From Candidatus Krumholzibacteriota bacterium (GTDB lineage: Bacteria > Krumholzibacteriota > Krumholzibacteriia > JAJRXK01): 64,000 nt of DNA. Position 1 is the stretch's first letter, and every line of letters begins with the position of its first letter. The stretch is from NCBI GenBank assembly GCA_963727455.1, contig CAVSGG010000008.1, forward strand, positions 192,001-256,000. The letters are read 5' to 3'. A model generated the notes under the pieces. The model ran no database searches. It worked only from the letters and a program-made list of their open reading frames with translations, and had not been told where the DNA came from. Shown here piece by piece: positions 12,490 to 23,286 of the stretch. The translations under genes and the position numbers were made by a program.

Positions 12490-13719
12490 TCAGGCGGGCC
12501 TGGTCTCTTTCAAGCAGCGCAGAAGCTCGTCGATGTCCGCTTCGGTGTGGGCCGCGTTGATTTGCACGCGAATCGTCTCGTCCCCGCGCGGCACCACAGG
12601 AAAGGTGAGTCCCACCACGAGGATGCCCCTCGCAAAGAGCTGGCTCACCCAGCGTCGCGTCTTCTCGGTGTCACGCACCAAGAGCGGGACTACCGGATGG
12701 GGCCCCGGAATGGACTCCAACCCCAAGAGCGCCACCCCGCGCCGGAACTGAGCCACCCGCTCGTGCAGGTGCTTCAGGCGCTTTTGACCCTCGGGCGAGG
12801 CGGCCAGTTCGACCGCGGCCAGCGCGGCCGCGCAGTCGGCCACTCCGAGCGGGTTCGTGTAGATGTAGGTGTCGGCCTTCTGACGTACCGCTTCGATGAG
12901 CTGGGCGCTCCCCGCGATGAAACCGCCGTTCACCCCGAAGGCCTTGCCGAAGGTCCCCACCACCACGTCCGCCTTTGCCTGGGTGAATTCCTCGGTGCCG
13001 CGAGCCGTATCCCCGTAGGCTCCGATCCCGTGCGAATCGTCCACGATGATGAGGATTCCCTCCTCGAAGCGCCCCTCGTGCGCAGCCACGATCTCACGGA
13101 TCTTCGCCAAGGGCGCGAAGTCGCCGCGCATACTGAAGATTCCGTCGCAGATCACCAGGACGCGCTTCATCCCCGCAGGCACCGCCTCCAGGCACTTTCT
13201 GAGTTCGGCCATGTCGTTATGGGCATAGATGGCCCGCTGTTGCGAAGGCACTCCGGCGATGCGCATTCCGCGGATGATGCAGTTGTGGTTGAGAGCGTCG
13301 CCAATCCAGTAGCTCTGTTTCCCGGCCAGGGTGAGGGCCAGGCCCAGATTGCTGGTATAGGCGGAATTGAAGATCTTGGCGGCTGGCTTGCCCAGGTACC
13401 GGGCAATCGCAGTCTCGAGTTGGCGGTGGTGGCGGAAGGTGCCGTCGATGAAGCGCACCGCGCCCGGCCCGACACCGAATTCGTGGGTGGCGCGGTCAGC
13501 GGCCTCCACCAGCTTGGGGTGATCGGAAAGGGAGAGGTAGGAATTGGAGTTCATGCGCAGGAATTCCTGCTCGCTTTCCTGCAGCCTATAGCGCGGTCCC
13601 CGCTTTCCCTTGGCGGGGAGATACCCCACGATCACTCTCTCGGGCGCCTTGGCCCGACCCTCATCCTTCAGGCCCTGCAGCTCCTTGGCCAATGCCTCGT
13701 CGATCTTCTGCATGCTCAT
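12490..13719 (-). CDS. kbl: PLP-dependent alpha-oxoamine synthase (glycine C-acetyltransferase/BioF family)
   Basis: NSYLSL, GAVRFIDGT, LNHNCII, DGIFSMRG, DDSHG and GTFGKAFG motifs. Start at ATG 13719 after GGAGG. Confidence 0.8.
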   Translation of the reverse strand: MSMQKIDEALAKELQGLKDEGRAKAPERVIVGYLPAKGKRGPRYRLQESEQEFLRMNSNSYLSLSDHPKLVEAADRATHEFGVGPGAVRFIDGTFRHHRQLETAIARYLGKPAAKIFNSAYTSNLGLALTLAGKQSYWIGDALNHNCIIRGMRIAGVPSQQRAIYAHNDMAELRKCLEAVPAGMKRVLVICDGIFSMRGDFAPLAKIREIVAAHEGRFEEGILIIVDDSHGIGAYGDTARGTEEFTQAKADVVVGTFGKAFGVNGGFIAGSAQLIEAVRQKADTYIYTNPLGVADCAAALAAVELAASPEGQKRLKHLHERVAQFRRGVALLGLESIPGPHPVVPLLVRDTEKTRRWVSQLFARGILVVGLTFPVVPRGDETIRVQINAAHTEADIDELLRCLKETRPA

Positions 13720-13822
13720 AACGGGTCCCTCCTCCAGCGTTCCGCGCCCTTCTCGCTCGGCGCGGGCAGTGTAGTGCAGGGCTCCTCGCGCTCGCAAGCA
13801 GACAGCGACCAGGGGGCGGGCA

Positions 13823-13899
13823 CAAAAAAGTTGGGCTCGAGGCAAAAAAGTCAAGCGGAGGATGCTGCGCGACTAGGGTATTTGACCTATTATGAGGTC
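13823..13899. promoter_or_regulatory. Direct repeat and inverted repeat in the divergent kbl/peptide promoter region
   Basis: CAAAAAAGT at 13823 and 13843 (20-bp period). GACCT-ATTATG-AGGTC at 13884-13899 overlaps a TATTAT -10-like box. Confidence 0.4.
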
Positions 13900-13969
13900 T
13901 ATCAACACGCTGTCGAGCCCTACGCCGGCTCGACCCCATCGATTGGTTCCAAGTCGCGGAGTTCGCGCC

Positions 13970-14110
13970 ATGAAGACGAGACACGACGCTGGCCAGAAGC
14001 GTCGCCCCTACAGTCCACCCGTAGTCAAGCGGCAGAGTAATCTCAAGTTGATCACGCTTTTCACCCAGATGGGTCCGGATTCGAAGCGGACGGCGAACGG
14101 TTCCCACTAG
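13970..14110 (+). CDS. 46-aa putative RiPP precursor with a lasso-type leader
   Basis: MKTRHDAGQKRRPYSPPVVKRQSNLKLITL|FTQMGPDSKRTANGSH. YxxP motif, Thr at -2, GGAG RBS upstream, and it fills the kbl-lipA intergenic space. Confidence 0.62.
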   Translation: MKTRHDAGQKRRPYSPPVVKRQSNLKLITLFTQMGPDSKRTANGSH

Positions 14111-14134
14111 GGCCGCTCACAAAGCGCCCGGCCC

Positions 14135-15028
14135 CTACAACTTTTGCTCGACTGGAACGTGCCGCTCTGCGTGATAAGAGGAGCGCACGAAGACGCCACT
14201 TTCGACATGCGCGAAGCCCAGGGTTTCCGCATGCGCACCGATTTGCTCGAATTCCTCCGGCGGAACCCAGCGTTCCACTGGCAAATGGCGCGCACTGGGT
14301 TGTAAATACTGCCCGATAGTCAAAATGTCGACCTCAGCTTCGCGCAAGCGTTCACAGACTTCGTAGATCTCGTCCAAGCTCTCTCCCAGCCCCAGCATCA
14401 AGCCACTCTTCGTCCGTAAAACCTTTTCCCCCTTGGCCTTGGCAGCGCGGGCCAGCAACTGGAGGCTGCGCGGAAAGTCCGAGCCGTGGCGTACCCGCGA
14501 GTAGAGCCGGGGCACCGTCTCCACGTTGTGGTTGAGGATCTCGGGCCGGGCGGCGAGGACGGTCTTCAAAGCCTCTTCGCTGCCCCCGAAATCGGGGATG
14601 AGAACTTCCACCGTACAGCCGGGGTTTTCGCGCCGGATGGCGGCGATGGTGGCCGCGAAGTGGGCCGCGCCCCCGTCCGGCAGATCGTCGCGATTGACGC
14701 TGGTGACCACGGCGTGGCCGAGACCCAGCTCCTGTACTGCTTGCGCCACATGCTCGGGCTCTGCGGGATCGAGCAGGGCGGTGGAGCCCTTCTTCACCGC
14801 GCAGAATCCGCAATGCCGCGTGCACACCTCCCCCATGAGCATGAAAGTGGCGGTCCGGGCCGACCAGCATTCGAAGAGGTTGGGGCACTGGGCTTCCTCG
14901 CAGACAGTGGTCAGATGCAGCGAGCGCATCATGGAGCTGACGCCCTTCACCGCCTCGGAATCGCGCAGACGCAGGCGCAGCCACGGCGGACGCTGCGCGA
15001 TGCGTTCCTTCAAGCTCTCCCTGGGCAT
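14135..15028 (-). CDS. lipA: Lipoyl synthase
   Basis: CEEAQCPNLFEC, CTRHCGFC and VRSSYHA motifs. Confidence 0.96.
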   Translation of the reverse strand: MPRESLKERIAQRPPWLRLRLRDSEAVKGVSSMMRSLHLTTVCEEAQCPNLFECWSARTATFMLMGEVCTRHCGFCAVKKGSTALLDPAEPEHVAQAVQELGLGHAVVTSVNRDDLPDGGAAHFAATIAAIRRENPGCTVEVLIPDFGGSEEALKTVLAARPEILNHNVETVPRLYSRVRHGSDFPRSLQLLARAAKAKGEKVLRTKSGLMLGLGESLDEIYEVCERLREAEVDILTIGQYLQPSARHLPVERWVPPEEFEQIGAHAETLGFAHVESGVFVRSSYHAERHVPVEQKL

Positions 15029-15030
15029 GA

Positions 15031-15693
15031 TCAGCTCACCCCTTCCACCATCTCGCGTTCGAAGACCGCGCCGAACTCGGGAACGAGTGCACGGGTGACC
15101 CGCTCCAGGCTCAGCTCCGAAAGCCCGAGCTCCTCAAGGGAGCTGACTCGTTTGTCCTGAATCCCGCAGGGCACGATGGTTCCGAAAAAGCGCAGGTCAC
15201 AGTTCACGTTCAGCGCGAAACCGTGGCTGGTGACCCAATGGCTGAGACGCACTCCGATGGCGGCTACTTTGGCGTCAGCCACCCACACCCCGGTGTAGCT
15301 CGGATGCCGTCCCGCCTGGATTTGGAACTTAGCCAGCACTCGGATCAAAACCTCCTCGAGACGCCGTAGGTAGCGGTGCGCGTCCCGTTCCCCTTCCCGC
15401 AATTGCAGGATAGGATAGCCCACGAGCTGTCCGGGGCCGTGATAGGTCACGTCGCCTCCCCGCCCGGATTCGTGCACCGTGAGATGGAGCCGTTCGCGCG
15501 CCGCCGGGTCCACTAGAATGTGTTCCTCACTCGCACGGCTTCCTTTGGTGAGAACGTGCGGATGCTCGAGCAACAGGAGCTGATCGGGGATCTCTCCCTG
15601 CCGACGCCGGCGCACCAGTTCCTCTTGCAAGCGGACGGCTTCCTCGTACCCCATGCAGCCGAGTGAGCGATAGTGACACGGAGGAAGTGGCAT
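15031..15693 (-). CDS. lipB: Octanoyltransferase
   Basis: LLEHPHV, RGGDVTYHGPGQLVGYP, HGFALN and IVPCG motifs. Confidence 0.95.
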   Translation of the reverse strand: MPLPPCHYRSLGCMGYEEAVRLQEELVRRRRQGEIPDQLLLLEHPHVLTKGSRASEEHILVDPAARERLHLTVHESGRGGDVTYHGPGQLVGYPILQLREGERDAHRYLRRLEEVLIRVLAKFQIQAGRHPSYTGVWVADAKVAAIGVRLSHWVTSHGFALNVNCDLRFFGTIVPCGIQDKRVSSLEELGLSELSLERVTRALVPEFGAVFEREMVEGVS

Positions 15694-15706
15694 TTCCGCC
15701 CTACCC

Positions 15707-17160
15707 TCAGAGTGCGGTCTCGTCGAAGTTCTCCAGGGTCCTCTTCACCGAGCTCAAGAACACCTCCGCGGTGGCGCCGTCGACCAGTCGATGATCGTAG
15801 CCCAGCGTCATGTACATCTTGGGCCGAATGGCGATGGCGTCGTCGACGACGCAGACCCTCTTCTCCACGCTTCCCATCCCCAAAATCGCGACGTTTGGCT
15901 GTGAGATCACCGGGAAGCCGATGAGTCCGCCGAAGGAGCCGGGATTGGTGATGGAGAAGGTTGAGCCCTGGATCTCACTCAAATCCAGCTTGCGATCCCT
16001 TGCTCGCTTGGCCAGGTCGTCGATGGCTCGCGCGATTCCGGTCATGGAGAGATCCTGCGCGCGGCGAATCACCGGCACGATGAGACCCTGTTCCAGGGCG
16101 ACGGCGATCCCGACGTTGATGTCACCATGGAGAATGGCCTCGTCCCCCACCAGCGATGCGTTGACCACGGGCGTCGCGCGGAGCGCGTCGACCACTGCCT
16201 TCACCATGAACACGGTGTAGCTGAGCTTGGCGCCGCCCGCCGCCTTCATGAACTCCTCGCGGTGAGCCTTGCGCAGCTGATCGATGCGGCTCATGTCCAC
16301 TTCGTACAGCGTGTGCACGTGCGGCGAAAGCGCCTTGGAGATGACCATGTGCTCGGCAATCTTCTTGCGCATCTGCGAGAGCGGTTCGACTGTGTCGTTC
16401 TCGCCCTTGCCGGAGAGATAGGCCTGGACGGTCTTGGCCGGCCATCCGCTGACTCCCAGCATGGCGGAGCCCTCTACCGCGGGGGGACCCCCGTTTCCTG
16501 CGGGGCGCCCTGCGCGGCAGACTGGGCGAGAACTACTGGCGGCTGCGGCTGCAGGCTTGGCACCGCCCTCCTCGATGTAGGCCAGGATATCCTTCTTGGT
16601 CACCCGGCCCTGGATTCCACTGCCTTCGATCTTGTGATGTCGATCTCGTGCTCGGCCGCGATCTTGCGGACCACCGGCGAACTCTTGGTCCGGATCCGCT
16701 CCTCCCGAGACGCCGTCCCCTTGTCGCCGGCCGCGCCGGAGACCTTGGACTCCTCGGACCGTGCCGGAACTGAGGGTGTGGCCTCAGCCGTACTGGATTC
16801 TTTGGTGGCCGCGGAGACCTCGGGCCCTTCACTTTTGGAGGCCTCGCTCTCTTGCGACTTCTCGTTCGCGGGCGTCGGGGAGGGTTCGGGCTCCTTGCTC
16901 TCGGACTTGGCGCCGGCGCCATCCTCTTCGCCGATTCGCGCGACGACGGTGTTGATTTCCACCGTTTCCCCTTCCCCAACCAGAATCTCCAGCAGAGTCC
17001 CCGCCTGGGGCGCGGGAATCTCCGCGTCCACCTTATCGGTGGAGATCTCGAATAGGGGCTCGTCGTGCTCGACCACATCGCCCACTTTCTTGAGCCACTT
17101 GGTGATGGTGCCCTCGGCGATGCTCTCGCCCATCTGAGGCATGATCACTTCGCTTGCCAT
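15707..17160 (-). CDS. 2-oxoacid dehydrogenase E2 acyltransferase (one frameshift near 16630)
   Basis: Lipoyl domain (MPQMGES...TDKVDAE) in ORF 16600..17331 and catalytic domain (DHRLVDG) in ORF 15707..16603. Confidence 0.9.
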
Positions 17161-17224
17161 GGATCCTCCCGGCCAGCATTGGCAACTGGCGCTCGTAGAG
17201 ATTTCGAAAGGAAAGCTCGAACTT

Positions 17225-18205
17225 TCAGTATCGTACCAAAGTCCGGGCTTTCGCCACCACCTGAGCCGCTTGAGGCAGGAATGCCTCTTCCAGGGGGGGA
17301 CTGTAGGGCACCGCGCTATCCGGGGACGCAAGCCGCATCAAGGGTGCATCCAACCACTCGAAGGCTCTCTCGGAGATTCGCGCGGCGAGTTCACCTCCGA
17401 AGCCACCGTTCAGTGTCGCTTCGTGCAACAACAACACTCGACCGCTGCGCCGCGCCGCCGCGAGTACCGCCTCTTCATCCAGAGGAACGAGACTGCGCAG
17501 ATCCACAACTTGCGCCTCGATCCCGTCTTCTTCGGACAGCTGGCCCGCAGCCCGCAGTGCGGTGTGTACCATCGCTCCGTAGGTGATGATCGCCAGATCC
17601 CCGCCCTCTCGCAAAGTTGCAGCCTTCCCCAGCGGAGTAAGGATCTCCTCGTCCTCGGGAAGCTCCTCTTTGATCCGGCGGTAGAGGTACTTGTGCTCCA
17701 AAAAGAGTACTGGATCGTCGTCGCGGATCGCCGCTTTCAGAAGACCTTTCGCGTCGCGTGCGGTCGCCGGCTGCACGATTTTCAATCCCGGCGTGGAGCT
17801 AAAGAAGTTCTCCACGTTTTGGCTGTGGAATGGACCTCCGTGGACACCGCCCCCCGAAGGTCCCCGAATGACGATGGGCACCGAATAGCCCAGTCGGTAG
17901 CGCGCCTTCGCGGCCCAGTTGACGATCATGTTGAAGGCACAGGCGATGAAGTCGATGAACTGCATCTCGACCACCGGCCGCATGCCCTCCAGCCCCAGTC
18001 CGATGGCGCATCCCACGATTGCCGATTCGGAAATCGGAGTGTCCAGAATGCGCTTGGGTCCGAAATGTTCGAGCAGGCCCGAGGTTGCGCGAAATGCTCC
18101 GCCGTAGTGTCCGACGTCTTCTCCCATGAGCAGCACCGATTCGTCGCGCTCCATCTCCTCCCACAGCCCGTCATGAATGGCCTCGATGTAGCTCCGTTCC
18201 GCCAT
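17225..18205 (-). CDS. 2-oxoacid dehydrogenase E1 beta subunit
   Basis: MAERSYIEAI..., GEDVG, DTPISE, EMQF and HSQ motifs. GGAGG RBS, and the ATG overlaps the E1-alpha TGA. Confidence 0.92.
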   Translation of the reverse strand: MAERSYIEAIHDGLWEEMERDESVLLMGEDVGHYGGAFRATSGLLEHFGPKRILDTPISESAIVGCAIGLGLEGMRPVVEMQFIDFIACAFNMIVNWAAKARYRLGYSVPIVIRGPSGGGVHGGPFHSQNVENFFSSTPGLKIVQPATARDAKGLLKAAIRDDDPVLFLEHKYLYRRIKEELPEDEEILTPLGKAATLREGGDLAIITYGAMVHTALRAAGQLSEEDGIEAQVVDLRSLVPLDEEAVLAAARRSGRVLLLHEATLNGGFGGELAARISERAFEWLDAPLMRLASPDSAVPYSPPLEEAFLPQAAQVVAKARTLVRY

Positions 18206-19236
18206 CACCCCTCCTCCCTTTGTCCGCGGCGAGGATCGTCGTCCTCCGCGTAGACTCCACCGAAGGCCAGCGAGGGATCGGGCATGGGCGAGTTCTGGGC
18301 ATACTCCGCGTCCTCCTCGAGTTCCTTGGCGATGGGTTCGCGCATTTCGTCCAGCTGCGAGCTGGGTGACCAGGCCTTCTCCCAAGAGGTAGTTCCGCAA
18401 GCGATCGATGGGATCGCGCGCCTCCCAGTACTTGCGAAGGTCCTGCGGCACGTAGCCGGCATCGTCGTGCTCGGCGTGTCCTCGACGGCGGAAGGTGAGC
18501 ATTTCCAACAAGATGGGGCCCTCTCCCTTGCGACATCGGCGCACGGCGCGCGCGGTCGAGTGATAGACTGCGATGACGTCGTTGCCGTCGACCCGCTCTC
18601 CCTTGATGCCATAGGCCTTGGCCCGGTCGGCGAAACGTGGATTGCCCGTTTGAGATGCGGTCGGAGTGCTGTACGCATAGCCGTTGTTCTCGCAGACGAG
18701 GATCAAGGGGAGCTTCCAGACCGCAGCCAGATTCAGGGCTTCGTGGAAATCTCCGGTGGAAGACCCACCGTCGCCGATGTAATTCATCGCCACGTTCTTC
18801 TTCCCGCGCAGCTTGGCGGCGAGAGCCGTTCCGGCGAGCACCGGAATCATCGCCCCCAGCATGGAAATGGGCGCCACGAGATCTCGTTCGATCGATCCGA
18901 AGTGGGTGTTGCCGTCACGACCGAAAGTAGGGACTTGTGGCGCGGGCCAGATACTGGGTGAAGATCTCCCGGGGACGAACGCCCTTGACCAGGAGCGATC
19001 CCAGGTTACGAATGAGCGCGCCCATTCGGTCGCCCTTTTCCAGGGCATAAGCGGTCCCCACCGCCACTGCTTCCTGTCCCAACGAACTGTAGAGACCGCC
19101 GACGACTTGGCCCTGACGGTAAAGCTTGCTCAAGCGGTCCTCGGTCATGCGCGTAAGGATCATGTACCGGTACAGTTCGAGAAGTTGTTTCTTGCCCAAA
19201 CGGGCAGTGGTATGGCGCAAGAGCGGAGGTACCGGA

Positions 19237-19256
<20 letters not shown>
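18205..19256 (-). CDS. 2-oxoacid dehydrogenase E1 alpha subunit (frameshifts near 18930 and 18365)
   Basis: GQEA, TPP motif GDGGSSTGDFHE...ENN, and RRRGH pieced together from three frames. Confidence 0.88.
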
Positions 19257-20690
<1,434 letters not shown>

Positions 20691-20846
20691 CTACCACGCG
20701 GAGAGGGAAAAGTAGCACAAGTCCACGGTTTGCCCACCCGAAGCCCCAATTCCTTCGCCCAAACCCCCGCCGTGGGGCGCCGATTCATGGATTCAAATGT
20801 TTGGGTTTGATCGTCAAATGGTCTTACGGTGCGCGTGCCTCGGCGA

Positions 20847-20875: not shown

Positions 20876-20911
20876 CTTCTCCCGACCGGTCCTATGCCCC
20901 TTGGAGGAACC

Positions 20912-21205
20912 GTGGTCTTCAACCCCGACTTTCGCCCGAGCCGAAACGATCAGGTCCGTTGGCAGGCTGTCGACGAAGAGGGCATCCTCGTGAATCTCGA
21001 GACGGGCTTTTACTTCAGTTTGAATCCAGTGGCCCTGTTCATCTGGGACCTCTGCGATGGCGAAGCTTCCAACGCGCAGATTCTGGAGAAGATCGTGGAG
21101 AACTTCGACGTGGTCGAGGAGACGGCCCGTCAAGATTTCGAGGCATTTCTGGAGGCCCTGGAGAACGAGAACCTCCTCGTCGTGTCTCCTCCCAGGGCGA
21201 GCTAG
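20912..21205 (+). CDS. Stand-alone PqqD-family RiPP recognition element (lasso B1-like)
   Basis: About 97 aa: VDEEGILVNLETGFYFSLNPVALFIWDLCDG...FDV...ARQDFEAFLEALENENLL. GGAGG RBS before GTG. Confidence 0.85.
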   Translation: MVFNPDFRPSRNDQVRWQAVDEEGILVNLETGFYFSLNPVALFIWDLCDGEASNAQILEKIVENFDVVEETARQDFEAFLEALENENLLVVSPPRAS

Positions 21206-22308
21206 CCGCGAAAGTCCTCTCTTCGCGGATGCACAAACCCCCTCCCCCCAAGCGTGGATTGACGAAGCACGGGTCGCGCCAAGAGCGTGAGTACCTGTGG
21301 ACCCAGGATTTCGACCGCAGGAATACCTCCGTCGCATAGTTGAGATACCAGATCGGGACCACGCCACTTCTTCGGCGCTGCCATAGCGTACGCGCGACCA
21401 GACCGCGCCAAATCCGTGATCGAAGCGTCCCGGACCCGCCAGACTCTGGGTAGGCCCGCGGGGCCCTGGAGACCAAGGAGCAAACTGGCAGTCCGCAGCA
21501 CCCGGCTCAGCTCCTATTGCACTCCCATTTCCCTCGCGCGCGCGGAGAGGGTATGCCCATCGACCCTTCTCCGGCGCGCGAAGGCCAGCGTCTCCACACG
21601 GCCGGATCATGCCGGCGTAGTTCTCGTCATGGTCGATGCGGAGGCACGAATGGATGAGTGAATCGTAATCGTCCAGGCGCCTCATCTTCTCGTAATCGGG
21701 GCGAGAGAGGAAGGGAACGCGTCCACATCCCGTCCAGATCGAGATGAAAGGGATGCGGGGGACGAACCATGATCCCAGTGCAAGTTGAGCCTGAGTGCGG
21801 GACAGCTGGGTAAATAACGTGGCTCGGCGCGGTGATGGTGCAGGTAATATTCCTGCGGAAGCTTGCCGAGGCGCAGAAAGCCACAAGCATCGACCAAGCG
21901 TTCAGCCTCTTCCATCGCGGCGCGGCCGAGCAGGAGATCCATTTCGCCCGGACCGCGCAGCCAGCCCCGAGGCTCGTAGAGCAAGATGCGCAGGGCGGTC
22001 CCGTTCAGAGCGATCGCGGGAATGGAAGCTTCGGCGAATTTCTCAGCCAGCCGCCGTGTCGAGTCCCCGGCGACCAGATCGAAGGCAGCCGTGAGTTCGT
22101 GTGCCTCCTGCATCCTCAACTTGAGCAGTGGGGGAAGCTCGTCGTAGACGCCTTCGTCCTTTAGTACTCGGTAGAGCAAGGGGAGAATGCCGTTGTCGTT
22201 GGCCAGCTCCAAACCGGAGGCGTCGGGAGCCAGAAGGGGACAGCTCGTCTCGTCTTTGGCCATGAGACGAGCGATCCAGTGCAGCAGCTGATGAGGGGCG
22301 CGGTTCAC
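21202..22308 (-). CDS. Nucleotidyltransferase-family (NTP_transf_5-like) protein with several frameshifts
   Basis: IALNGTALRILLY...R...EMDLLL followed by LNLHW. The C-terminal half continues in other frames to a stop at 21202, convergent with PqqD. Confidence 0.65.
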
Positions 22309-22329
22309 GCTAGGCTCCGAGGAGGGGAT

Positions 22330-23286
22330 CTAGTGTCGATACACGTAGATGGAAAAGACGATGTACAGAGTCAAGAGCATCGCGGCTTCCGGCCGCTCCA
22401 CGCGGCCGTGGCGACGCATGATGGGAATGACCGCCAGCGTGAACAAGAGCATCACCATGAGCAAGAACCCAGTGGATCCGGATTCGTAAGGAATCTCAGC
22501 TCCTCCGAAGCACGCACTGATACCCAGCACGAAGAGCAAGTTGAGGATGTTCGAGCCAAGGATGTTGCCCACACCGATCTCATGCTGTCCTCTCAGTACC
22601 GCCACCACCGAAGCCGCAAGCTCGGGAAGGGAGGTGCCCTACGGCAACCATGGTGGCGCCGATCACACTCTCGTCGATTCCCAATTGCAAGGCGATGGCC
22701 CTGGCGCCCGTCACGAGCACTGTCGCACCGCCCACCAAGAAGGCCAGACCCAACACGACCATGAGCGAAGGAAGCAGCATACCTCCCTCGCCAGGATCGA
22801 TTACTCCCTCCAACGGTGTCTCCTTGATGGCATGTCCGCTTCTGACGTAGTACCAGGTGAAGAGAACGAGGCCCAGGAGGAGGATGATCCCGTCGTAGAC
22901 GGAATAACCCGCGCGGAAAGAGGGCCAGCGCGATTCCCAGGAGAGTCATCGCAACCAGGATCTTGACCTCCGCGCTCACCCGCGCCCAGGGCACATGGAT
23001 GGGCCGAAGCAGTCCCAGGATGCCCAAAATGAGTCCAATATTGGCGATATTGGATCCCAATACGTTTCCCAGGGCCAAACCGCCCGAACCCATTCGTGCC
23101 GCGGTGAGCGATGCGACCGCTTCGGGAGCACTGGTCCCGAAGGCCACGATCGTCATCCCCACCACCATGGGACGGACCCCCATGCGGAAGGCAATGCGAG
23201 ATCGAGCCCCGAACGAGGATCTCGGCACCGAACCAGGTACCGATCGCCCCACCCACCAGGTATGCGATAGCCAGGAAGCCATGCAC
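22330..23286 (-). CDS. Calcium/sodium antiporter (YrbG family), frameshifted
   Basis: GMTIVAFGTSAPE...GNVLGSNIAN, and a second repeat GATMVAVG...GNILGSNILN. Confidence 0.85.

Follow-up and report, generated by a model that had tools for sequence, protein, structure and literature searches.

A conserved 46-residue peptide with a lasso-type leader in Krumholzibacteriota, the likely precursor of a pathway lacking a lasso cyclase

The window analysed here is a stretch of 64,000 nucleotides from the genome of a Candidatus Krumholzibacteriota bacterium (assembly GCA_963727455.1, contig CAVSGG010000008.1, positions 192,001 to 256,000), and our subject is a short open reading frame (ORF) on its plus strand. 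All coordinates are window positions; the source genome is termed G000 and its sister genome G001. An initial annotation had taken the encoded peptide for the precursor of a lasso peptide, or of some other ribosomally made, post-translationally modified peptide (RiPP) dependent on a RiPP recognition element (RRE). We find a conserved gene with a leader in the lasso register, and think it reasonably likely that the peptide is the precursor of an RRE-dependent pathway that is derived from lasso biosynthesis and has no cyclase. The locus contains the following elements.

13970..14110, plus strand: peptide ORF of 46 amino acids, by direct translation (ATG at 13970, stop codon TAG at 14108-14110).
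13958..13961, plus strand: Shine-Dalgarno-like GGAG, 8 nt ahead of the ATG, read directly from the sequence.
13970..14059, plus strand: leader, codons 1-30, with a basic N-terminus and then RRPY-x-x-P-x-V ... L25 ... T29-L30.
14060..14110, plus strand: presumed core, codons 31-46 (FTQMGPDSKRTANGSH), and the stop codon, from the translation and an alignment of 55 homologues.
Minus strand, match to the G001 orthologue ending at 13719: kbl-type class-I/II aminotransferase flanking the ORF (tblastn and Pfam).
14135-15028, minus strand: lipoyl synthase lipA, flanking the ORF.

The coordinates, the translation and the GGAG ribosome-binding site are identical to those of the initial annotation, and among the homologous ORFs whose start region was inspected, most have a GGAG or GGA-rich stretch at the equivalent site. 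The ORF sits in a gap of 414 nt between two minus-strand genes, and the remark that no enzyme gene adjoins it is true of G000, its neighbours on either side being kbl and lipA, which both run the opposite way. It had been suspected that a sequencing indel altered the core. No indel is present in read contigs of four runs (X1, X2, X3 and X5, examined over 13600-14400, with partial cover in X3 and X5); the ORF is covered intact by contigs of three wetland-metagenome DNA runs and of one salt-marsh metatranscriptome library. Two substitutions are seen, 14079 A>G (D37G) in three of the four runs (X2, X3 and X5) and 14096 A>C (N43H) in X1. The metatranscriptome-library contig, 283 nt spanning 13931-14213, is only a hint of expression; DNA is possible in such libraries, and the contig does not determine the strand.

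The peptide belongs to a family confined, among the named database records that were looked up, to Krumholzibacteria or Krumholzibacteriota. A profile search of 5.8 billion proteins returned 34 proteins of 34-78 amino acids at E <= 0.01, and a HMMER scan of 1.84 billion representatives returned 30 at E <= 0.001, all of these homologues being annotated 'hypothetical'. When 41 related genomes were searched with the single sequence, a syntenic copy that is 80% identical was found in G001, and copies of 44-59% identity in G002, G004 and G005, several of them in different genomic contexts. The profile matches 14 of the 208 genomes of the phylum, in three taxonomic families. Together with the 34 database proteins, this bears out the conservation of ORF and leader for which the initial annotation had proposed a check. 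We aligned 55 members, excluding P0048, P0049 and P0055 for being repetitive or dubious. In this alignment Y14, P17 and L30 never vary, and L25, T29 and T32 hardly do. With L30 taken as position -1, Y14 lies at -17, P17 at -14, V19 at -12 and T29 at -2; position -2 is T in 54 of the 55 members and position -12 is V, L or I. Position +2 (T32) is T or S, again in 54 of 55. The length of 46 residues and a C-terminal S-(H/R) are retained in seven close homologues. The nearest named cluster in a protein atlas is 'Lasso RiPP family leader peptide-containing protein' (0.83), which we treat as a lead only.

The changes between genomes are of the coding type. Over 22 leader codons G000 and G001 differ by six synonymous and two non-synonymous changes, with a ratio of non-synonymous to synonymous rates (dN/dS) of 0.09, and G002 and G004 differ in their leader codons by ten synonymous changes and none that is non-synonymous. 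For the full-length peptide dN/dS between G000 and G001 is 0.21, compared with 0.12-0.13 for the flanking kbl and lipA. The region 5' of the ATG can be aligned between these two genomes only with indels, including one of 2 nt just ahead of the ribosome-binding site, which indicates that the gene starts at the ATG at 13970. The peptide ORF is a real, conserved coding gene.

The register is exactly that of a lasso leader, as the initial annotation had claimed; for lasso precursors the accessible text of PMC10368454 gives Tyr(-17), Pro(-14), Leu(-12) and Thr(-2), and reports that lasso B1 RREs need the motif Y-x-x-P-x-(L/V). The bare motif is common. A search of the six-frame translation of G000 (67,698 open segments, 6.1 M residues) with the pattern Y..P.[LVI].{9}T. 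gives 35 occurrences, eight of which have D or E at +7 to +9, so that the lasso motif alone is no better than chance. The peptide is raised above chance by its conservation, its coding-type evolution and its gene linkage.

Some relatives in the databases and genomes differ in form. A diverged paralogue of 40 amino acids is found in G000 (contig C18:11597-11704, minus strand) and also in G001:C6 and G003:C39; it keeps the Y-x-x-P part and lacks the T-L of the presumed cleavage site (T-2). It adjoins the gene of a major facilitator superfamily transporter, and a 738-codon ORF beside it has no Pfam match and may be spurious. The database protein P0048 (141 amino acids) has about seven tandem repeats resembling the family motif ITLYTN(Y/F)G, and P0055 (199 amino acids) repeats four times a unit that looks like a classical lasso leader (Y-E-P-P-x-L ... 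G ... L-T). P0048 and P0055 may be multi-unit precursors.

A stand-alone RRE and a putative modifying gene lie downstream in the window.

20894-21205, plus strand: stand-alone PqqD-family RRE of the lasso-B1 type (PF05402, 69.6 bits).
21211-22323, minus strand: NTP_transf_5 (PF14907) gene, convergent with PqqD (PF14907 on the piece 21682-22308; tblastn with the intact G001 protein spans 22323-21211).

This is the sole PqqD domain found in G000. Searched as a single sequence, its best solved relative is TbiB1 (E 7e-9, aligned over the whole RRE). With the family profile TbiB1 is reached at E 4.6e-19 and other lasso B1 structures come next, true PqqD following only at 2.6e-4. The best NCBIfam model is TIGR04248, below its curated cut-off, and on TIGR03859 the protein scores 32.5 bits against a cut-off of 46. 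Identities as the PqqD of pyrroloquinoline quinone (PQQ), SynChlorMet or GeoRSP systems were rejected, the scores being far below cut-off and the lasso B1 structures matching better. The protein is 90% identical between G000 and G001, with dN/dS of 0.05. Because relatives place the peptide directly beside an orthologous PqqD, this protein is the likely recognition partner of the leader, as the initial annotation had proposed for an RRE near 20912.

The suggested modelling of leader and RRE together gave weak support for binding. The predicted complex of PqqD and peptide has an interaction score (ipSAE) of 0.58, compared with 0.03 for the best of three controls; the runs share at least 95% of contacts, and the predicted local distance difference test (pLDDT) of the partner is at least 52. 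In calibration 58 of 80 solved complexes reached the mark, as did 2 of 110 mismatched pairs, and passes at or below 0.60 comprised only 7 of those 80 solved complexes together with both of the passing mismatches. Moreover, the pass may be memory on the part of the predictor, because TbiB1 with its leader (5v1v) is already a solved structure.

Linkage was counted over the 14 peptide-bearing genomes of the phylum. In seven the peptide lies within about 300 nt of a PqqD or HPr-kinase-like (HprK-like) gene. Five of these (G050, G057, G075, G090 and G091) have the order peptide, PqqD, kinase-like, and the other two (G008 and G009) the order PqqD, B2, kinase-like, peptide. In four more (G000, G001, G004 and G005) the peptide is 4-7 kb from PqqD on the same contig, and in G002 the same kbl-adjacent peptide is present, with a contig break between it and the cluster. 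An ORF of 105 codons in G005 was rejected as PqqD, being unrelated; the real PqqD lies just upstream. In genus g1 peptide and PqqD are separated by a 2-oxoacid dehydrogenase operon, which in the window is the minus-strand set lipA, lipB, E2, E1, lpdA (14135-20736). The gene lpdA also adjoins PqqD in G002, G004 and G005, and this neighbourhood therefore predates the split of the genera.

The clusters of the relatives contain a Transglut_core3 protein of 140-170 amino acids, a B2-type protease. In G050 and G090 it passes the NCBIfam model lasso_biosyn_B2 (NF033537; cut-off 33 bits), scoring 39.6 and 42.7, and a B2-type gene stands beside PqqD in G002, G004, G005, G008 and G009. They also contain an HprK-like protein with an invariant P-loop GxSGxGKS, and an NTP_transf_5 protein of 350-430 amino acids with a G...D-x-D motif. 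An ATP-binding cassette (ABC) ATPase and an ABC-2 permease are present in the clusters of G050 and G090, and probably in that of G057, judged from gene sizes. Searches of the PDB with the HprK-like and NTP_transf_5 sequences gave nothing usable. A model of a related NTP_transf_5 protein (pLDDT 63 overall, 80-93 in the N-domain) resembles the hydroxyl-directed O-nucleotidyltransferases LnuA and ANT(2'')-Ia, with E 1.9e-5 and a template-modelling score of 0.66 on the target for LnuA.

In G000 the system is reduced. A B2-type protease (PF13471 or NF033537) was not found in G000, whose genome is 88.85% complete, or in G001; of the partners proposed in the initial annotation, the PF13471 protein is thus present in the clusters of relatives and not found in the source genome. 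HprK-like genes were likewise not found in either genome, and neither the HprK-like nor the ABC-2 proteins of relatives had a tblastn match in G000. Here and in G001 PqqD and NTP_transf_5 are convergent and abut, at a point where G002 and G004 have about 3 kb carrying B2 and kinase-like genes. From this comparison the protease and kinase genes appear to have been deleted in G000 and G001, and since both lack them the loss most simply predates their split. Peptide and PqqD are constrained between the two genomes after that loss, from which we argue that the pair still works. In G001, where the NTP_transf_5 protein is intact, the first Asp of its D-x-D motif is displaced.

Compared with the intact G001 proteins, lpdA (19264-20736, minus strand) and a Na/Ca exchanger (22336-23210) are each in pieces over three frame segments in the window, lying in two or three reading frames. 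As the former is a housekeeping gene, the G000 assembly probably carries many indel errors, and other readings of the window that are based on ORFs should be treated with caution.

The initial annotation envisaged a ring closed between Phe1 and Asp7 of the core. The candidate acceptor, D37, is D, D, G, K, D, N and D in the seven closest homologues (D in four of them), with Gly in the 98%-identical P0003 and K or N in P0007 and P0017. D or E is found at +7 to +9 in 19 of the 55 members, so that no conserved acceptor emerges, and 21 have no acidic residue whatever after the leader. The segment following T-L is 10 amino acids or shorter in 16 members, some cores having only 6-8 residues. As a rule, position 1 of a lasso core is a small residue (Gly, Ala, Ser or Cys); here +1 is F in 44 members, Y in nine and L in two, and never G, A, S or C.

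The enzymes give the same picture. G000 has four proteins with an Asn_synthase domain, each starting MCG(I/L). All four score above the threshold of TIGR01536, the model for glutamine-hydrolysing asparagine synthase (433-492 bits, cut-off 267), and below that of NF033535, the model for the lasso cyclase (198-243 bits, cut-off 525); by these scores they are ordinary glutamine-hydrolysing enzymes. No lasso cyclase was found in the 88.85% of the genome that is available. Asn_synthase genes were absent from the vicinity of the cluster in five of five relatives checked and from among the cluster genes scanned, and the expectation of a PF00733-type partner is not upheld. The other partner envisaged, a radical SAM/SPASM enzyme, was not seen in the related clusters scanned, and the sole radical-SAM gene near the peptide is lipA. 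As the tests of cyclase, acceptor and core length all failed, this is not a lasso cluster. The system resembles the tailoring half of a phosphorylated lasso pathway, and of the two identities first offered for the peptide the broader one, another RRE-dependent RiPP, is the best reading.

Work on phosphorylated lasso peptides suggests how such a system might function. In the accessible text of PMC8498205 and PMC10368454, HPr-kinase homologues phosphorylate linear lasso precursors at a C-terminal Ser or at core Ser3, B1 speeds this phosphorylation, and the cluster nucleotidyltransferase PsmN attaches a hexose to the phosphate. By homology with these enzymes, the leader of our peptide, Y14-x-x-P17-x-V19 ... 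T29-L30, would dock on the lasso-B1-type PqqD (20894-21205). In complete systems the B2-type transglutaminase-fold protease would cut after T-L, and the HprK-like P-loop enzyme would phosphorylate a core hydroxyl, most plausibly that of the near-invariant Thr/Ser at +2. The NTP_transf_5 enzyme would then add a nucleotide or phospho-sugar, and the ABC-2 exporter, present in some clusters, would export a linear product in which no macrolactam ring is formed. In G000 and G001 the peptide probably binds to PqqD, and any modification that it undergoes would come from NTP_transf_5 alone.

More tentatively, and with a good deal of doubt, we suggest that these systems could be a new class of RiPP, one that arose from the lasso machinery when its cyclase was lost. 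B1 and B2 would release a short, conserved linear peptide with the consensus F-T-N-F-G-P-P-S (after T-L), the Thr/Ser would be phosphorylated and then nucleotidylated or phosphoglycosylated, and the product would leave by ABC export. Given the conservation of the core across the phylum's families, the product may be a signal or ligand and not an antibiotic; in this proposal it would be a shared one, possibly for the neighbouring Sortilin/BNR surface proteins of the type IX secretion system (T9SS), and G000 would carry a further reduced version of two proteins, RRE and nucleotidyltransferase, that still acts on the peptide.

Several observations weigh against the cyclase-less pathway that we favour. 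The linkage counts come from related genomes and are not independent samples. In G052 the peptide lies near no cluster, and one cluster of that genome has no peptide within 10 kb; in G003 there is the diverged paralogue only, and PqqD was not found. The distance between peptide and PqqD in G000 is 6.8 kb, with a housekeeping 2-oxoacid dehydrogenase operon between them. With the B2 and HprK-like genes not found there, the full pathway cannot run in G000, and its NTP_transf_5 gene is broken over several reading frames relative to the intact G001 protein. Because lpdA and the Na/Ca exchanger are also frameshifted these breaks may be assembly errors, with real decay as the alternative. The complex prediction gives weak backing for binding of the leader by PqqD. 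Cleavage, phosphorylation and nucleotidylation are deduced from the homology of neighbouring genes. The HprK-like proteins score 33-56 bits on TIGR04352, whose cut-off is 200 (seven proteins scanned). None of nine peptides matched an NCBIfam precursor model at E <= 10, and among the 55 members only two have a faint Pfam match, to PF19397 (best E 0.056); P0001 has none at E <= 1. Finally, conservation is highest across the presumed cleavage site (NLKxITLFTNFGPP), unlike typical RiPPs with their hypervariable cores, and the peptide could be one that is not cleaved at T-L.

These points bear on four other explanations of the gene. Were it a true lasso precursor, a cyclase and a protease encoded elsewhere would close the Phe1-Asp7 ring. 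The exact leader register, the lasso-B1 type of the PqqD, the four Asn_synthase proteins, the acidic residue at +7 to +9 in 19 members and the name of the nearest protein-atlas cluster all agree with this. We nevertheless regard it as very improbable, given that residue 37 is Gly in three runs and P0003 and K or N in two further homologues, that so many cores are short or have no acidic residue, and that all 55 have F, Y or L at +1. Moreover, all four Asn synthases score as members of TIGR01536 and not of NF033535, none lies near the cluster in the five relatives, and PF13471 was not found in G000. Still harder to credit is the idea that the ORF arose by chance, or that it belongs to a regulatory region of kbl or lipA that does not code for protein and is conserved for its DNA or RNA function. 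Such a region would suit the gap upstream of kbl with its hairpin and minus-strand promoter-like site (below), and the bare motif does occur 35 times in the genome. Set against this, paralogues in unrelated contexts retain the protein sequence while their DNA diverges, synonymous changes far exceed non-synonymous ones, no Rfam family matches, and indels fall upstream of the ORF and none inside it.

Two explanations accept the gene and dispute its role. It might be a relic in G000, intact but unprocessed and functionless since the protease and kinase genes were deleted. B2 and HprK-like genes are missing from both G000 and G001 at a syntenic site that is occupied in G002 and G004, the local NTP_transf_5 is frameshifted, that of G001 has its displaced Asp, and the core is polymorphic (D37G, N43H). 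A relic seems unlikely to us, as purifying selection has acted since the loss (dN/dS of 0.09 for the leader, 0.21 for the whole peptide and 0.05 for PqqD) and the seven close homologues keep their length and C-terminal S-(H/R); the broken NTP_transf_5 may in any case be an artefact of an assembly in which housekeeping genes are frameshifted too. Equally, the product might be a small protein that works in unmodified form, say as a regulator or ligand binding PqqD or a cell-surface protein, and is no RiPP precursor. Conservation that peaks across the supposed cleavage site and extends into the 'core' is what this would lead one to expect. Peptide genes are often beside T9SS proteins of the Sortilin/BNR type (G002, G005, G050 and G057), and the paralogue without T-2 is conserved in G000, G001 and G003, in the last of which PqqD was not found. 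We think an unmodified protein improbable all the same, because operon-like adjacency to a B1/B2 pair and two enzymes of modifying type in seven genomes is the signature of a modified peptide, and T9SS-domain proteins are so numerous in G000 that their adjacency may be partly chance.

The T9SS neighbours are Sortilin/BNR-propeller and PKD proteins with T9SS sorting domains. In four genomes, which belong to two families, they are encoded directly beside peptide genes or overlap the HprK-like gene at its end.

7903-10197 of L047 (G050): T9SS-type neighbour.
14152-16500 and 6930-10133 of L048 (G057): T9SS-type neighbours.
6720-12879 of L032 (G005): T9SS-type neighbour.
3-2132 of L035 (G002): T9SS-type neighbour.

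In tblastn searches with the Sortilin/PKD proteins, these genomes proved to hold very many T9SS C-terminal domains, which makes adjacency to the peptide weak evidence that could be due to chance; the surface proteins may be functionally tied to the peptide. In genus g4 a gene for a peptidase S46 (dipeptidyl-peptidase 7-like) lies directly ahead of the cluster of PqqD, B2, kinase-like gene and peptide (L036 2076-4271 in G009; L037 7288-9552 in G008), and SnoaL-like and MerR/B12-binding genes come after the NTP_transf_5 gene.

Within the gap that holds the peptide gene a minus-strand promoter-like site is found at 13916-13889, upstream of kbl. The promoter scan found no sigma-70-like site on the plus strand ahead of the ORF, other promoter types being outside its model; a terminator scan around the ORF found none, and the composition profile has nothing distinctive there. 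A perfect 8-bp hairpin at 13912-13934 (GTCGAGCC, a 7-nt loop, GGCTCGAC) lies upstream of the peptide gene, 36 nt from its start, and overlaps the promoter-like site at the -35-like hexamer. In G001 the hairpin is retained apart from one mismatch, and one of its pairs shows a compensatory change from T-A to C-G; it could regulate the peptide gene or kbl. An Rfam scan of 13500-14400 found no known RNA family, with one chance lncRNA match (E 0.17, 21.8 bits against 50).

To our knowledge, lasso pathways are the only setting in which lasso B1 and B2, the HPr-kinase homologues and the 'uncharacterised nucleotidyltransferase' have been known, and there kinase and transferase are deemed optional tailoring. 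In this uncultured phylum we meet these parts again, in three families, grouped around a conserved precursor that is unable to form a lasso. Our searches of the full-text literature, which leaves subscription journals largely outside, brought up neither an account of such a cyclase-less cluster nor one of lasso peptides from Krumholzibacteria. If the product were confirmed, it would mean that the chemistry which defines a RiPP class can come from tailoring enzymes, that pairs of lasso-type RRE and protease serve outside lasso biosynthesis, and that genome-mining rules requiring a cyclase overlook a whole group; it would also be a first natural-product lead for Krumholzibacteria. G000 and G001 are a natural experiment in which precursor and RRE remain under selection after the loss of protease and kinase.

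The system can be compared with four that are known. Like PqqA and PqqD of PQQ biosynthesis it pairs a short peptide bearing a conserved motif with a PqqD-fold recogniser, and its core is conserved as in cofactor precursors. PqqA requires a Glu-x-x-x-Tyr pair for its cross-link, whereas the alignment of 55 members has no such conserved pair, and pqqB, pqqC and pqqE are not among the cluster genes scanned (a genome-wide search for them was not made).

Bioinformatically defined cassettes with HprK-related kinase A, and the SynChlorMet cassettes (ScmC/ScmD), have an HPr-kinase-like P-loop gene beside a gene of the PqqD family, as do our relatives. The best NCBIfam models of the kinase-like proteins are TIGR04352, TIGR04355 and TIGR04249. 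The first of these we take to be the 'HPr-rel-A system', with cassettes of HprK-related kinase A, PqqD and a nucleotidyltransferase. None of the scores comes near its curated cut-off (33-56 bits where 200 is required, and 49.8 where 100 is), and the proteins are hence not members; in none of ten genomes of the order was the TIGR04352 cut-off reached. Nor was a radical-SAM/SPASM gene seen in the clusters scanned.

For recognition the parallel is TbiB1 with the TbiA leader (PDB 5v1u/5v1v), together with other lasso B1 RREs (TfuB1 6jx3, 9x90 and 9x8z). The PqqD of the window can be aligned with TbiB1 over the whole RRE and the peptide carries Y-x-x-P-x-(L/V). Unlike that of TbiB1 and TbiA, binding here is a weakly supported prediction (ipSAE 0.58).

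Lastly, there are the phosphorylated and phosphoglycosylated lasso clusters, namely those of paeninodin (PadeK), Bradymonas bsf (BsfA/B1/B2/K/N) and pseudomycoidin (PsmK/PsmN). Our family differs from them in that no lasso cyclase was seen in any cluster, and B2 and kinase are missing in G000. The cores are short (6-8 residues are possible), conserved where those of lasso precursors are hypervariable, with an aromatic residue or Leu at +1 and no acceptor in 21 of 55, and the exporter is of the two-gene ABC-2 type. As far as the accessible text of PMC8498205, PMC10368454 and PMC7533575 goes, the Y-17/P-14/L-12 leader and the penultimate recognition residue are shared. As in our relatives, B1 (PqqD) and B2 (transglutaminase-fold) are separate proteins, and a single cluster combines an HPr-kinase homologue, an 'uncharacterised nucleotidyltransferase' and an exporter (same sources). 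The features of a kinase-tailored lasso pathway are divided within our family: no HprK-like gene was found in G000, whereas in relatives one stands beside the peptide, and the putative target at +2 is Thr or Ser in 54 of the 55 members.

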